A stretch of DNA of 58,154 bases, the filler included, from Basidiobolus ranarum (taxonomy: Eukaryota): NCBI GenBank assembly GCA_040143965.1. It is 2 parts of 2 records of this genome, joined end to end, with 100 filler letters (N's around TTAATTAATTAA, not from the genome) between each part and the next. Parts side by side here need not be neighbours in the genome. Positions count along the whole stretch, not along the records: positions 1 to 29,054 come from JASJQH010006983.1; 1 more part is not named here. One strand, 5' to 3'. The translations under genes and the position numbers were made by a program. The notes under the pieces are model-generated. The model worked only from the letters and a program-made list of their open reading frames with translations, was not told where the DNA came from and did no database searches. This document shows positions 992 through 29,639 of this stretch, piece by piece. How positions within the stretch are numbered: position 1 is the stretch's first letter; every line of letters begins with the position of its first letter.

Positions 992-2233
992 CTATTGTAT
1001 GTTACACTGAGGAGCTGCAGACACTTCCTTAGTGCCAGGAGACATAAGATCTTCAATGTCCGCCGTGCTACAATCGCCCTTGTTCTTTCTCTCAGCTTGG
1101 GTTTCGAGCACAAGCTGCCCGCAAGCTCCAGAGACATCTTGTCCCTTTTCCTGACGGACAGTACAGCGGATGTTGTATTCGCTCTTTAGGATATTCTTGA
1201 AATTAATGATGCTTTCCATTTTAGGTGCGCTGAATTCTATCTCTGGACTGTAGATGGGATTCCAAGGAATAAGATTTACTGTGACATTTCTATGTTTCAA
1301 AAGTTCACCCAGTTCATGGATATGTTCAGGAAGATCGTTGACTCCGGATAATAGCACATATTCAATAAAGACTTTGTTCCCTGTCTTCTCTTGATAGGTG
1401 TCAATAGCTCCCATTAGTTTATCCATTCTATACTGACGAGCACTAGGGACTAGCTTTTCACGGACCTCTTGGTTAGGAGCGTGCAAAGAAAGGGCCAGAG
1501 ATACCTTGGGTAAATCAGTTGCGAGTTTTAAGATGTAGGGGATAATACCGACAGTAGATACGGTTACTCGGGAAGGTTTGAGTCCAAAGTAACGAGGATC
1601 AATCATAAGGCTGACCGCCTGTGAGACACTTTTGTAATTATTAAGTGGTTCTCCCATTCCCATGAAAACAACGTTACGGATGTCTGCTTCTTTTTTAGCG
1701 TGCATCAATTGTTCAATAATTTCAGCTGCGGTTAAACTGCCTTGAATCCCCATTGTACCGGTTGCACAAAAAGTACAAGCCATCTGACAACCAACTTGGC
1801 TAGAGATGCATAAGGTGGCTCTTCTGCTGATTCCATCCGCGACCAGTTTTGGTTTTGTGCCGGGTTCAGAAGGATTTTCTTCGTTTTCTTCAGCCTCAGG
1901 TGTGGGTTTGAAACTTAATGGTTCATAGAACATAATGACAGACTCTACTTCCAAACCATCTTGCAAACGAACGACTAGTTTAATCGTATCACCCGATTTG
2001 GACTCTTTTTTGTGGATAACTTTGCTAGTACTAAGTACATAATTCTGTAATAAATGTTCCTTGGCTTTTTTTGGAAAATCCACAATGTCATCAAAATCAG
2101 TAGTAGAACGGTTAATCAAATGAGAATATAAATTATGCAAATGTTGTGGACGAATCTTCAATTCTTCAAAAGTTTCTTGTACCGAAACTTGGTCGAAGAT
2201 TGACGGAGGATTTAAGGTTCTTTTAGGTGGCAT
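992..2233 (-). CDS. rlmN: RlmN/Cfr-family (class A) radical SAM RNA methyltransferase, intronless
   Basis: LCISSQVGCQMACTFCATG (CxxxCxxC plus the resolving Cys), NVVFMGMGEPL, TVSTVG, LALSLHAP, EYVLLSGVND, VNLIPWNP, GACGQL (methyl-carrier Cys). Confidence 0.93.
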   Translation of the reverse strand: MPPKRTLNPPSIFDQVSVQETFEELKIRPQHLHNLYSHLINRSTTDFDDIVDFPKKAKEHLLQNYVLSTSKVIHKKESKSGDTIKLVVRLQDGLEVESVIMFYEPLSFKPTPEAEENEENPSEPGTKPKLVADGISRRATLCISSQVGCQMACTFCATGTMGIQGSLTAAEIIEQLMHAKKEADIRNVVFMGMGEPLNNYKSVSQAVSLMIDPRYFGLKPSRVTVSTVGIIPYILKLATDLPKVSLALSLHAPNQEVREKLVPSARQYRMDKLMGAIDTYQEKTGNKVFIEYVLLSGVNDLPEHIHELGELLKHRNVTVNLIPWNPIYSPEIEFSAPKMESIINFKNILKSEYNIRCTVRQEKGQDVSGACGQLVLETQAERKNKGDCSTADIEDLMSPGTKEVSAAPQCNIQ

Positions 2234-2942: not shown

Positions 2943-5084
2943 ATGGAACATCAACACAATACCACAACAGACATCCCAACATCTCGTCCGCTTACAAAGG
3001 AGCAAGAAGCGCTTCAAACGAAAGAGCATATTACCGAGATAATGCAAGCTGCTCAAGAAGGGTCACTCCCTACGACCGCTCAATTGACTAATGTCATCGA
3101 AAAAATTCAGGAAGAAAACTCACTCCATCAAGCTGCAGAAGAAATGAGTCCAACGGGTAGGAGAGTAATGGCTGATACTGAGAATCTCTTGGACTCAACC
3201 AAGAAGCTATTGAGTGAGAAAAATGCTGACGATCAACTACAAAATGTAATCTACCACTCTAAAAAAAGCGGGATAGGGGCAAGCTCTGTGGATGAAATTT
3301 CTCATGCTAACAATCAACTAACTGGGACTGTAGAAGAAGCGAGAACACTCCTATCTGAAGGAGCTGATAAGATTACCAGAGTAGGGTGGTTGATCGTCAC
3401 TTCTCCTCAACTCCGCCGTCTGATGAATGATATTACTTCTATATTTCAAGAATTTGTTGCTGACAATGTTCCACAACATCCAGAGTCGAACAAAAACGTC
3501 GTAACTTCAGTCGGTTCAGAGTACACAGGATCCTTTAAAATTCCACAAGAACAAGAAGTGCCAGTGGGAGAGGTTGGTAAACGTATGCAAGAAACTTTGC
3601 GACAGAGTGAGACACCTCTCTACGAAAGTGTGAAAGAAACGGCAAGACCATATGTTGAGCAGGCGGAAGATGGGAATATGCCCATAAAAGAAGCTGCTGA
3701 AGAGACGCTACAGGAAATGAAGCAAGGGATTCAACAGCGACTGCAGAATGTCCACCTTTCATCAGCTCAAAAAGATCACTTAATCAACCGTATCAAGGAA
3801 GTGCTCCGTGAACTTCAAAAAAACCCAGAATTCCAGGAAGTCATTGATGAATTAATAAATATTGTCAGCACCTTAAAATCACATGGTATGGCTATTCAGT
3901 CACAGGTAGTTGAAACTGTTCAATCCAAGAAAGAAGAGGGTGAGGACGACTTGAAAATTGCTCGTTCTAACGCTAAGGAGCTAATTGAAAAATTCGCTGA
4001 AAATAAATCGCTGGATCCCTTGAGCAACACAATCAAGGAATTAACCGAAGAACTATCCAAAGACGAAGAATTGTCTTCATTTACGGGAGATGTTAGAGAA
4101 TTTCTCCAGCGTTCTGTTCGGGAATATGAGTTTATCGATCAGCCAGGGTACATGGAAGAAGCACGAAGTCTATATGATAGAGGACAAAATATCTTGGATA
4201 GAAAATATCGAGATTATTTCCAAAATATTAGCAATGAAGCTGCTGATTTTATTCAGGCTTTACAGCACGATCGTACTACTCAAGCATTTACACGTGATCT
4301 AGAGAACCTGACCAGAGATATTTTCCTGGATGAGAGTGGCCAACCAACCATCAAGTATGACCTCGTTAGAGACTTTGTTAAATTGGTTCCAACTATTGCA
4401 AAGAAGTTAGAATACTGTCCACTCCCGCGAGTGGAGAACTCAGACGAACAGTTCAACATAATACTTGACAACATAGTTCTAAAGTGTTCCAACATAACCC
4501 CAGATTATATCAGTGTTAAAACTGATACAGTATTGGACACCAAAGCTGACAGCGACCAAAATATTCACAACAATGTTTACATCAAGTTCGAAAATATTCA
4601 AGTAGAAGCAAAAAACATGGCTTTCTATTACAAGAAAAAAACCTTCCCCAAGATGTCAGACGTTGGATACGTAGACCTCGTCATGCCTGACGATGGTATA
4701 TCGATGGATATGAAGTTGAACACGACTCCTGCACCCGATCCAGTAACTAGCCAAAGCCATGCCTATCAAGTACAGGATGTCAGCACATCGGTGAAGGATC
4801 TAAAACTCAAGATTCATAATTCCAAGCATGATATTCTATACAAGTTACTCTCCCCAATTATCAATTCAAAAGTGAAAAAGGTCGTTCAAGAGCATGTTTC
4901 CTTCAAAATACGCGAAGTGATGATGAGATTGGATGAACAACTGACAAAGATCATGGAGAACGCTAAAGCCCAAGGAAACTCTAGCTTATTGAAAGATAAC
5001 GATGAAACCTCTCGACTGTCTAAAAATCCTATCCCAGATTGGGGATCTCGAGCATATGATTTAAAAGAGCCAACAGCAACATGA
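2943..5084 (+). CDS. HAM1-like / DUF4449-type fungal protein (helical N-terminus, beta-rich C-terminal domain)
   Basis: 713-aa intronless ORF with G.LPT..QL, L.SEKNADDQLQN, PLPRVENSDEQFNIILDNIVL, MAFYYKKKTFPKMSDVG.VD and SKHDILYKLLSP, which I recognise from this uncharacterised fungal family. Confidence 0.75.
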   Translation: MEHQHNTTTDIPTSRPLTKEQEALQTKEHITEIMQAAQEGSLPTTAQLTNVIEKIQEENSLHQAAEEMSPTGRRVMADTENLLDSTKKLLSEKNADDQLQNVIYHSKKSGIGASSVDEISHANNQLTGTVEEARTLLSEGADKITRVGWLIVTSPQLRRLMNDITSIFQEFVADNVPQHPESNKNVVTSVGSEYTGSFKIPQEQEVPVGEVGKRMQETLRQSETPLYESVKETARPYVEQAEDGNMPIKEAAEETLQEMKQGIQQRLQNVHLSSAQKDHLINRIKEVLRELQKNPEFQEVIDELINIVSTLKSHGMAIQSQVVETVQSKKEEGEDDLKIARSNAKELIEKFAENKSLDPLSNTIKELTEELSKDEELSSFTGDVREFLQRSVREYEFIDQPGYMEEARSLYDRGQNILDRKYRDYFQNISNEAADFIQALQHDRTTQAFTRDLENLTRDIFLDESGQPTIKYDLVRDFVKLVPTIAKKLEYCPLPRVENSDEQFNIILDNIVLKCSNITPDYISVKTDTVLDTKADSDQNIHNNVYIKFENIQVEAKNMAFYYKKKTFPKMSDVGYVDLVMPDDGISMDMKLNTTPAPDPVTSQSHAYQVQDVSTSVKDLKLKIHNSKHDILYKLLSPIINSKVKKVVQEHVSFKIREVMMRLDEQLTKIMENAKAQGNSSLLKDNDETSRLSKNPIPDWGSRAYDLKEPTAT

Positions 5085-12127: not shown

Positions 12128-13822
12128 CTAGGTATCTTGAATATATTCGGAGGGATAATGTAGATCTTCCACACCCACTTCGAAGACAGTTTGCATTCCG
12201 AGCATCATGTGTGCTGTGACATGACAATGGAATATCCAAACCCCAGGGTTATCTGCGATGAACCGGAAGGCACGCCATCCGCAGGGAGTCCCTGGCGGAT
12301 ACCTTAAGTTCTTGTCATCACGTTCTGGGTAAACAGATATCACATCTCTAAGTAGGTGTTGCGAGGTATTTCCAACTAGGGCAGATAGCTCTTGAGGGGA
12401 GTAACGACCATTTCCACCTCCCAAATCGAAGAACGAATGACCATGCAAGTGGAAGGGATGTGGGTCGCAACGACCTGTCGTCGTGGCAGTGTTTTGGATA
12501 ACAACCTGAATGACTTCATTCAGTTTTACTGGGATGGTTTTTCTAACAATATCATAACCGTCTGGTCGATTAATCGTTGGATAGTTTGGATATCTAGACC
12601 TTTTGCTGTTGTATAGGTCGATAAGAATGGGCGACATCGGCTCTTCGAAGGTAATATCATTCATGTACATCCGAATGGAGCCATCATTGATTTTACGTTG
12701 AGCGGTAGTCAAAAGAATTTCGCGATCATAGTAGCCAGGAAAGTCAGGGTGATTCAACTGACTAGGGAGAATCTCTTTTGCTAGCATCTTGAACTTATTG
12801 AATTCCCAAAATGGTGTGCCCAATGGAATCAGTGGGATTTTTTCAGGTGGTGGCCGGATGTTCGTTGCTAAGCCTGCAGCGCCTTCGTAATGCAGAATAG
12901 AAAGACCGTTTTCAGGGGTTGCTATGCGGAATTTAGCATTAGCTTTCATATAATAGTTGTCAATTGGCTGATTTGCTACAACTAGAACGGAATATCTCTG
13001 GCCCGCGTTTATTTCCAAGTGGTCCAATTGAACCGGCTCTACGTAAAATCCATCTACTTCGATTACAGTCATAGTATGGTGCGGTATAACGAAGGATAAA
13101 TACGTAGACAGCATTGCACCGATTATTCGAAATCTATATGTACGGCCTGGCTTGACATTGATGATATCATAACCACAGCTAGACGCCTTTCGGCAGCGTA
13201 GATCCCCTTCCGCGCAACGCCAATTTTCAAACGTCTTACCATTTGTGAGGATAGCCTGGGGGTCTCCTATCCAACGAAACGAGGTAGAGAGCAGCCCAGA
13301 GATGATATCATTGTCCTCTCGGTGGTAGAAATCACTCAGTAAGACAATTCTCTCCTCATCATACTGATATGGCGGTTGGTCATTTTTGTCTTCAATTACC
13401 AGAGCACCGAAGGCCGTCATTCCATGCACAGACGTATGCGCATGATAGAAATAGGTTCCGACCTGGTTAGTCAGATGTATTTCATGTCGAAAGTTGTTCC
13501 CAGGATCAATTGGATATTGCGTGATATACGGGACTCCGTCAGACTGTGGCGTTCCAGTCTGAAGTATTCCATGGAAATGAATCGTCACTACTTCAGAGGC
13601 CATACTGTTGTGAACGTTAATTATCAAAGTGTCTCCGGTGTGTGCACGTAGGGTAGGGCCTGGAGAGCCGCCATTAATTAAGACCATGAGGCGCTCATAG
13701 CAGTCGGGTGTGCGATAGCCTTGGCTAATGGTCAGATTATACTCTACTAACTGAGCGTGAACCAGTAACAGACTCGAAGCTAGTATTGTCAGGAAAAGCG
13801 TTTTCATTAAATACAGTCTCAT
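12128..13822 (-). CDS. Secreted three-domain multicopper oxidase (ascorbate oxidase/laccase-like), intronless
   Basis: Signal peptide; Cu motifs HFHG, YHAH, HPFHLHGH and HCHVTAHMMLGM (axial Met). No C-terminal TM helix, so not Fet3-type. Confidence 0.93.
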   Translation of the reverse strand: MRLYLMKTLFLTILASSLLLVHAQLVEYNLTISQGYRTPDCYERLMVLINGGSPGPTLRAHTGDTLIINVHNSMASEVVTIHFHGILQTGTPQSDGVPYITQYPIDPGNNFRHEIHLTNQVGTYFYHAHTSVHGMTAFGALVIEDKNDQPPYQYDEERIVLLSDFYHREDNDIISGLLSTSFRWIGDPQAILTNGKTFENWRCAEGDLRCRKASSCGYDIINVKPGRTYRFRIIGAMLSTYLSFVIPHHTMTVIEVDGFYVEPVQLDHLEINAGQRYSVLVVANQPIDNYYMKANAKFRIATPENGLSILHYEGAAGLATNIRPPPEKIPLIPLGTPFWEFNKFKMLAKEILPSQLNHPDFPGYYDREILLTTAQRKINDGSIRMYMNDITFEEPMSPILIDLYNSKRSRYPNYPTINRPDGYDIVRKTIPVKLNEVIQVVIQNTATTTGRCDPHPFHLHGHSFFDLGGGNGRYSPQELSALVGNTSQHLLRDVISVYPERDDKNLRYPPGTPCGWRAFRFIADNPGVWIFHCHVTAHMMLGMQTVFEVGVEDLHYPSEYIQDT

Positions 13823-14621
13823 AATGCCCTCTAGTATGCACAGAGCATCAAATTGGATATAAATCTACTAGGGAGGATACGATGAACTACCAACAAATGA
13901 GAAATTCAAAAAGAGACGAATACCTTAAATATCTCAGCTGAGGATCGAGTAGCTAAGTTCCACGAGTGTGCAATGCAGTTTCCACAGTATCCAACATACT
14001 ACTGGTTTCATTTGAACATGTGCTTCCAGGCGGTAGTATTGCCTTGGGAAGTCACCGTCGCCATGGCAAAAGCAGCCTATAGCAGCCACTGGATTGATCG
14101 GATTCCTCTAGTATTATGTACGATGAAAATCACCGGCTAATAACACGTTTGTTGATCCATGTGCATCATCTACAGCATCAGTCGTTTCTGGGGAAGGACT
14201 TTAGGACCCAGTGTTCAACACCAATGGAAACCGATCAATACTTGGCTCACAAAAAGAATCCAAATGTCTTGATATTTGATTTAACGTTTTTATAATACAA
14301 TATGTAGTTGCAAAATGAAAGTCATACGAAAACAACAAAAATTGAACATAAATATTCAAAAAGAGGATCATAAAGGCGCAAGGGGAAGAAATTAGCGAAG
14401 CTCGTAAGAGATTACTTCTCCGTCCAGTTCTTCTGGCTTGCACATAATTGTGGAGTGTGGTTGTGTGGTAGAGTACTAGTGCAGGAGAGGGGAGGAAGGT
14501 ATGTTTACATAGCATGAAAGGACTAAAGCCTCAAAATGAAAGATTTAAAGAATGCTTTTCGACGGAAGAAGTGTTGGCTCGAATATCAAGAATTAGCGGT
14601 GCTCGTAAGCAAGGCAATATT

Positions 14622-29054: not shown

Positions 29055-29154
29055 NNNNNNNNNNNNNNNNNNNNNNNNNNNNNNNNNNNNNNNNNNNNTT
29101 AATTAATTAANNNNNNNNNNNNNNNNNNNNNNNNNNNNNNNNNNNNNNNNNNNN
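29055..29154. other. Assembly gap with artificial spacer (N-run, TTAATTAATTAA, N-run)
   Basis: 100-nt block; the 12-mer places stops in all six frames, typical of contig-joining linkers. Confidence 0.95.
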
Positions 29155-29639
29155 AAGAATCTATATATCTGAGGACTTCTGATTGATGTAAATTTTCAAT
29201 AAAATTTCCTCTTGAGAATAGTGAGTGATATCTATTAAAGTATTTGGGAGCCTGTTGGAAGTAGTATGGAGAATTAGAGAAATTGGTGATTTTCACTTAT
29301 TGATTTATTGAGTATTGAGTTGACATTTATAGTTTTATTGTGTATGAGTTGACATTTATAGTTTTATTGTGTTTTGAGTTGACATATATAGTTTTGTCAA
29401 GATGTAAACAAAAAAAACATGTAGAATGTGTTAAAAAAGGTCCCAGGAACATGTGTTCAAAGTTTGGGGCTTCTAGCACAAGTTTGAAAAATCCATATAT
29501 CTGAGAACTTCTCAGTTGGTAAAGATATTTCAAGTAATTCCAATTGAGAATAATGAATAGTATCTTAGTGAATTATAAGATAACTAAGTACTAAGCTATA
29601 CATGACTATATAGGTGTTAAGGCAATGTTAATTTGAGCA
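29155..29639 (-). mobile_element. Copia-family LTR fragment (same family as 57090-57785)
   Basis: 29236-29639 aligns by eye with 57441-57785 (TTGGGAGCCTGTTGGAAGT, CTAGCACAAGTTTGAAAAA, CTGAGAACTTCT, ATGACTATATAGGTG). It contains an internal 29-30-bp triple repeat at 29316-29395. Confidence 0.8.

Follow-up and report, generated by a model that had tools for sequence, protein, structure and literature searches.

The window, meaning the whole stretch of 58,154 nucleotides from Basidiobolus ranarum that was analysed, carries at positions 992-2233 on the minus strand an intact open frame of 413 codons, which encodes a 413-aa radical SAM methyltransferase of the RlmN family. The predicted protein starts with MPPKRTLNPPSIFDQ, and an in-frame stop lies four codons upstream of the ATG. 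Judged from the frame, which is open from end to end and aligns with homologues, the gene is intronless. The features of the locus, all on the minus strand, are the following:

992..2233, minus strand: gene of a predicted RLMNL3-type (clade III) RlmN-family radical SAM methyltransferase, 413 aa, one open frame
2024..2203, minus strand: N-terminal helical RNA-binding domain, about residues 11-70, after the conserved clade start (alignment and model)
1829..1921, minus strand: acidic insertion, residues 105-135, modelled with low confidence (alignment; pLDDT <50)
1808..1810, minus strand: C142, resolving cysteine, equivalent to C118 of E. coli RlmN (alignment)
1766..1789, minus strand: CxxxCxxC [4Fe-4S] motif, C149-C156, with C149, C153 and C156 (alignment)
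1646..1663, minus strand: MGMGEP motif, residues 191-196 (alignment)
1244..1270, minus strand: IPWNPIYSP, residues 322-330, signature common to chlorophyte algae and Neocallimastigomycota
1121..1123, minus strand: C371, methyl-carrier cysteine in ACGQL, equivalent to C355 of E. coli RlmN (alignment)
1046..1060, minus strand: C-terminal DIEDL motif (alignment)

The protein scores 309.4 bits with the TIGR00048 model of RlmN (cut-off 290, E 2.7e-92), a family match that is therefore far beyond chance, and it does not attain the cut-offs of the narrower bacterial RlmN models. It is 35% identical to E. coli RlmN, a dual-specificity C2-methyltransferase of 23S rRNA A2503 and tRNA A37, and 31-34% identical to Cfr, the C8-methyltransferase of 23S rRNA A2503. 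C142, C149/C153/C156, MGMGEP and C371 line up with the catalytic residues of both enzymes, so the initial annotation was right to read an intact RlmN/Cfr-type gene with the CxxxCxxC motif, both mechanistic cysteines and MGMGEP; the proline of the last motif is as in RlmN, and both Cfr sequences compared have alanine there. The N-terminal domain, whose helices are predicted at residues 15-24, 29-42 and 55-64, aligns with those of E. coli RlmN, 6fz6 and Cfr. The structure model, built from a 6-row alignment, has a pLDDT of 68.8, and its top 11 Foldseek matches are all RlmN or Cfr chains (E 5e-29 to 4e-23), with a TM of about 0.68 to E. coli RlmN (3rf9, 5hr6). Cfr shares this fold and the two-cysteine radical SAM mechanism. 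The insertion at residues 105-135 is missing in E. coli RlmN and Cfr and has other lengths in relatives, which marks a variable-length site of the clade. No hydrophobic tail anchor follows DIEDL; within the final 70 aa, hydropathy over stretches of 19 residues peaks at -0.17. The first 30 residues hold, by inspection, 4 basic and 4 acidic residues, and this start is the conserved one of the clade, with similar starts in Chlamydomonas, Myrmecia and Spizellomyces; the alignment makes an upstream exon with a presequence unneeded, and it bears out the earlier statement that the N-terminus does not look like a mitochondrial presequence.

The gene lies among fungal neighbours on the same contig (HAM1-like, PH, Dbf4/Dfp1, multicopper oxidase, BEACH and Tra1). 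The HAM1-like gene, at 2943-5084 on the plus strand, is a single frame of 713 aa, divergent from the methyltransferase gene across a gap of 709 bases, and the multicopper oxidase, at 12128-13864 on the minus strand, is a single frame of 578 aa with all three Cu-oxidase domains. The methyltransferase contig stops at an N run (29055-29155) that has a 12-base island mid-way. GC3 of the methyltransferase gene is 0.37, against 0.38-0.44 in seven adjacent ORFs; a search of the genome at the DNA level gave one copy, and the nearest protein, among the best 120 of 1227 matches, is the Basidiobolus meristosporus orthologue, with 85% identity. Contamination is rejected on the strength of the fungal neighbours, the host-like GC3, the single genome copy and this orthologue. 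The single-exon state is a weak signal of transfer, because the HAM1-like and multicopper oxidase neighbours are also single frames and because 36% of native Basidiobolus genes are reported to have no introns (PMC7466969, in the part available). GC3 and the lack of introns were thus both considered as signals of transfer and both are uninformative; since GC3 is host-like, any transfer would have to be old.

A second RlmN-family gene is present in the genome at L004:3584-5305 (G000:C57), with seven GT-AG introns in the exon model and a product of 399 aa. It has MGQGEP in place of MGMGEP, is 40% identical to E. coli RlmN, and groups with it (100/96, IQ-TREE, 78 rows). Its start is presequence-like, being rich in arginine and poor in acidic residues. 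From its grouping with E. coli RlmN, this gene probably encodes the mitochondrial enzyme of fungal clade VI, and such a location would leave the cytosol to the 992-2233 gene. The 992-2233 protein itself is not a clade VI member by its grouping, as it does not group with proteobacterial RlmN.

After the B. meristosporus orthologue, the best 120 of 1227 matches are mostly green algae, with 50-57% identity over near-full length, and further matches in this set are Neocallimastix (50%), land plants (44-46%), and chytrids and Salpingoeca (43-44%). The chlorophyte clade III proteins (Myrmecia, Coccomyxa, Chlamydomonas) and those of Neocallimastigomycota are the closest in rank and share the WNxIxSP signature; the Basidiobolus protein differs from the chlorophyte ones by a long branch and by the GC3 of its gene, which is that of its neighbours. 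Identity to RLMNL3 is 46% over 391 columns, measured on P0115, a 372-aa protein with the record name A. suecica that was taken as RLMNL3 on the ground that its C118/C345 numbering fits the available part of PMC10838301. The FastTree tree (345/355 rows after the gap filter) places the protein inside the eukaryotic clade that contains RLMNL3, and the IQ-TREE tree of 78 hand-chosen rows recovers this clade with support of 93/95; in these trees, which are without clades I, II, IV and V of the Duan et al. 2024 scheme, it stands apart from bacterial RlmN and Cfr. The top Atlas cluster is 85% eukaryotic and the best prokaryotic matches have 36-38% identity. A bacterial donor was rejected, as the best plasmid matches reach at most 36% (25 rows listed of 258 records) and the one GTDB locus reaches 38%, in a scan that finds close relatives only. 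This sole GTDB locus (L014:601-1590) is RlmN-like, comes from a Thaumarchaeota MAG record, and groups with actinobacterial RlmN.

Arabidopsis RLMNL3 agrees with the protein in its catalytic residues, in the C-terminal DIEDL, in lacking both presequence and tail anchor, and in its eukaryotic clade in all trees. The host differs, being a fungus here; the fungal protein is also nearer to chlorophyte than to land-plant members and has a longer acidic insertion. With high though not full confidence, the gene is predicted to encode a soluble RLMNL3-clade (clade III) C2-methyltransferase of A37 in cytosolic tRNA, and its location would probably be the cytosol.

Two subtypes are found within this eukaryotic clade. 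Chytrid clade III copies cluster with the proteins of choanoflagellates, other holozoans and alveolates (100/100, 78-row IQ-TREE). A C-terminal hydrophobic tail is present in 30 of the 41 named chytrid and monoblepharid rows, and a tail anchor is seen in 73/95 rows of the chytrid-holozoan-alveolate clade, compared with 0/124 rows of the green clade, which the Basidiobolus protein resembles in having none. Tail-anchored proteins include P0096, P0110, P0145, P0150, P0185, P0188 and others, in the 100/100 clade to which Toxoplasma TgRlmN belongs. The available part of PMC5749711 says that the anchor is unseen beyond chromalveolates, and that of PMC12674569 regards it as an innovation made early in myzozoans; judged from these C-termini, the anchor extends to chytrids, monoblepharids and choanoflagellates, against its confinement to chromalveolates. 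Since 77/119 other rows have it too, the anchor may be the ancestral state, with a loss in greens. Many chytrid RlmN-like proteins (P0114, P0121, P0124 and many more) are misnamed 'sorting nexin' in public records and thus escape keyword searches. The Basidiobolus protein has in common with the tail-anchored subtype the wider clade, 43-44% identity and a similar N-terminus; it differs by the anchor, which is theirs, and AU tests reject a joint placement (p 0.0024, and p 0.0033 without Neocallimastix).

The initial annotation had called for a phylogeny, and the trees put the protein in the RLMNL3 clade among chlorophytes, together with Neocallimastigomycota. In the 78-row IQ-TREE tree, the Basidiobolus and Neocallimastigomycota copies pair with support of 100/93 and join chlorophytes with 85/81, and chlorophytes are monophyletic in 0/200 bootstrap trees. 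A quick outgroup-free tree of 44 rows unites core chlorophytes and fungi with SH 96 and all greens and fungi with 95. Either fungal group keeps its place among greens once the other is removed. AU tests reject green monophyly without the fungi (p 0.0067 and p 0.031, under a constraint whose 'greens' include row P0216, put there by the tree, all groups having been named after the first tree). They do not reject the fungi beside, not inside, core chlorophytes (p 0.418), so that nesting inside this group is not significant, nor do they reject a separate placement of the two fungal copies (p 0.429), so that a single shared origin is not established. The basis is a single gene of about 380 columns with long fungal branches (0.6-0.9), and once outgroups are included, the 78-row tree has little resolution at depth and does not unite the greens. 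The pattern WN.[IV].S[PE], picked after viewing the alignment, is found in 81/107 rows of the chlorophyte-plus-fungi clade and in 0/231 other eukaryote-clade rows. Rare residues common to the two fungal groups number 8, where the median is 3, and four other rows also reach 8; six of the eight are F, N or K, as AT-rich genomes would lead one to expect. At six columns that separate chlorophytes from streptophytes, the protein splits 3/2/1. A profile of six fungal sequences returned no further named fungus of the soluble subtype in the best 120 of 5006 matches.

From these trees and tests, the gene is probably an old acquisition of the Basidiobolus lineage, its donor being a green alga that belonged to core Chlorophyta or stood beside it, and the direction of transfer is probably from alga to fungus. 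The earlier suggestion of either ancient retention or transfer is thereby narrowed, with transfer favoured by the trees and AU tests and with a green alga, not a bacterium, as donor. It is slightly favoured, and less firmly than the transfer itself, that in Basidiobolus and in the anaerobic gut fungi, two unrelated lineages of gut dwellers, an algal m2A37 writer replaced the ancestral tail-anchored opisthokont version, either by one transfer that was then passed from one fungus to another or by two parallel ones. Basidiobolus, a member of Zoopagomycota, inhabits the guts of amphibians and reptiles (PMC7466969, in part), and reptile guts host both it and anaerobic fungi, the latter reported from tortoise (PMC10978972, in part).

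The substrate is predicted from the characterised plant enzyme and from the tRNA genes of the fungus. Arabidopsis RLMNL3 (At3g19630) is reported as a proven, tRNA-specific writer of m2A37 in cytosolic tRNA, whose loss cuts cytosolic tRNA m2A to <2%; cytosolic tRNA-Gln(UUG) carries m2A in 5/5 plants tested, including Chlamydomonas, in which, among the tRNAs tested, Gln(UUG) is the only cytosolic one with m2A, the enzyme being unattributed (all from the available part of PMC10838301). The same part gives tRNA-Arg(ACG) as the second Arabidopsis substrate, with G37 in rice, moss and Chlamydomonas, and has m2A absent from cytosolic rRNA of plants and Chlamydomonas. In a partial sample of 27 tRNA-bearing loci of the Basidiobolus genome, tRNA-Gln(UUG) is represented by two different genes, each with A37-A38 and one of them degenerate-looking; a 13-base anticodon-loop stretch of the intact-looking one is identical to the Arabidopsis substrate in the probe table of PMC10838301, a source available in part. 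A 12-base loop pattern has 18 genome matches, compared with 4 for the control. In contrast to Arabidopsis, tRNA-Arg(ACG) has G37 in all four genes seen in this sample, and several further A37 tRNA types are present. In L015-L041, tRNA genes of different types are packed into dense clusters on short contigs, as many as 8 within 3 kb, and similar gene orders recur; an Asp(ATC) and one Gln(UUG) are among several degenerate-looking copies. The plant-like loop of Gln(UUG) and the G37 of Arg(ACG) lead to a prediction of m2A37 on tRNA-Gln(UUG), likely the main cytosolic substrate, and cytosolic rRNA is an unlikely target. As to the proposal made from the DNA alone that the fungus carries m2A or m8A in cytosolic tRNA or rRNA, the m2A and tRNA parts hold as likely by membership of the RLMNL3 clade, the m8A part is not supported and the rRNA part is unlikely.

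By the mechanism described for RlmN and Cfr (bioRxiv 10.64898/2026.02.27.707579, in the part available), a first SAM would methylate C371, and the [4Fe-4S] cluster on C149/C153/C156 would cleave a second SAM. The 5'-deoxyadenosyl radical would abstract a hydrogen from methyl-C371, the resulting methylene radical would attack C2 of A37 in tRNA, and C142 would resolve the crosslink to give m2A37. As in Arabidopsis, the modification may modestly help the decoding of consecutive Gln codons. A38 is reported to abolish methylation by E. coli RlmN (PMC5130265, in part), whereas both plant substrates carry A38 (probe table of PMC10838301, in part), so the eukaryotic clade would read the loop differently. 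The Basidiobolus enzyme would thus differ from E. coli RlmN in acting on a tRNA with A38 and in having no expected rRNA activity, and complementation of an E. coli delta-rlmN strain could fail for an active enzyme, because the plant counterpart acts on tRNA alone, and on tRNAs with A38.

The whole explanation, that of a soluble cytosolic tRNA A37 methyltransferase with Gln(UUG) as substrate and a green-algal origin, is the favoured one, though well short of certain, and its main competitor concerns the origin. Under vertical inheritance, an ancient duplication would have given a tail-anchored and a soluble clade III enzyme, of which Basidiobolus and Neocallimastigomycota kept the soluble one and chytrids the other, so that the green affinity would be hidden paralogy plus long branches, with enzyme and substrate unchanged. 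The pairing of the two fungal copies, whose last common ancestor lies near the base of Fungi, the lack of significant nesting inside core chlorophytes and the fully host-like GC3 fit this history. It is opposed by the AU rejection of greens without fungi, by the signature held in common with chlorophytes and by the many losses needed; moreover, the top 120 of each search set contain no named taxon with both subtypes and no other named fungus with the soluble one. Hidden paralogy is unlikely on balance, and it keeps this much weight because of the two high AU values (p 0.418 and p 0.429), the 3/2/1 split, the uninformative shared residues, the weak deep tree and the groups defined post hoc.

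An m2A writer with other or wider substrates, such as Gln CUG, Glu, Asp and Ala tRNAs, cytosolic rRNA or mitochondrial RNA, is more doubtful still. Substrate sets are reported to vary between species (PMC10838301, in part), several A37 tRNA types occur in the genome sample, identity to the tested enzyme is only 46%, and the 30-residue acidic insertion adjoins the core; against this, the same partly available source reports m2A in Chlamydomonas, a relative nearer than Arabidopsis, on no cytosolic tRNA but Gln(UUG) among those tested, and reports none for cytosolic rRNA, and the start of the protein is not presequence-like, while the second RlmN gene has such a start. A Cfr-like C8-methyltransferase, whose m8A might shield ribosomes from peptidyl-transferase inhibitors in the gut, is very improbable, although all catalytic residues are common with Cfr and an early tree (Kaminska 2010, PMC2836569) placed the Arabidopsis member of the clade on the Cfr branch. 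The protein falls far under the cut-offs of the three Cfr models (TIGR04432, 244.9 bits against 550; NF000424, 249.9 against 530; a third model, 245.2 against 468), it lacks in the alignment the alpha5/beta6 loop extension of Cfr, and the available part of PMC10838301 reports no m8A detected in Arabidopsis. At 33 columns it has the RlmN state in 22, the Cfr state in 2 and another in 9, these columns being the differences between two RlmN and two Cfr sequences, a small reference set distinct from the 13 Cfr-specific positions reportedly published by Atkinson in 2013. On the Cfr scores, residue states and alignment, the m8A reading was rejected. Least probable of all is a silent gene or an assembly contaminant, given the intact frame, its 85% conservation in the second Basidiobolus species, and the host-like GC3 and fungal neighbours noted above.

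The presence of clade III in fungi is not new in itself, as it is already in print: according to the available part of PMC10838301, several chytrids have clade III and various fungi have clade VI, with most fungi lacking the family. The first view that the modification is uncharacterised in fungi holds in that our literature searches found no assay of a fungal clade member, nor a report of algal origin, and it needs correction in that fungal RlmN-like genes had been published. The word 'RlmN' is absent from the main texts, as available, of the transfer surveys PMC11291939, bioRxiv 10.1101/487215, PMC7466969 and PMC10978972; both accessions and K06941 are absent from the supplements of PMC11291939, and those of the other three surveys may list the gene. 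The names Basidiobolus, Spizellomyces and Neocallimastix are absent from the text of the PMC10838301 supplements, and the protein may be a tip in the tree figure of that paper. Catalogued Basidiobolus transfers are almost all bacterial and metabolic, and transfer screens that require absent or poor fungal matches would overlook a gene with chytrid homologues.

Plants are already known to have this enzyme class and its product, so the biochemistry would be an extension and the origin matters more. The prediction for this culturable fungus is m2A at A37 of tRNA-Gln(UUG), with none on tRNA-Arg(ACG) or cytosolic rRNA, and this would be the first m2A tRNA modification shown in a fungus. The gene would also represent a rare eukaryote-to-eukaryote replacement within the translation system, and an algal tRNA-modifying gene in two lineages of gut fungi would be a dated tie between the histories of chlorophytes and fungi.
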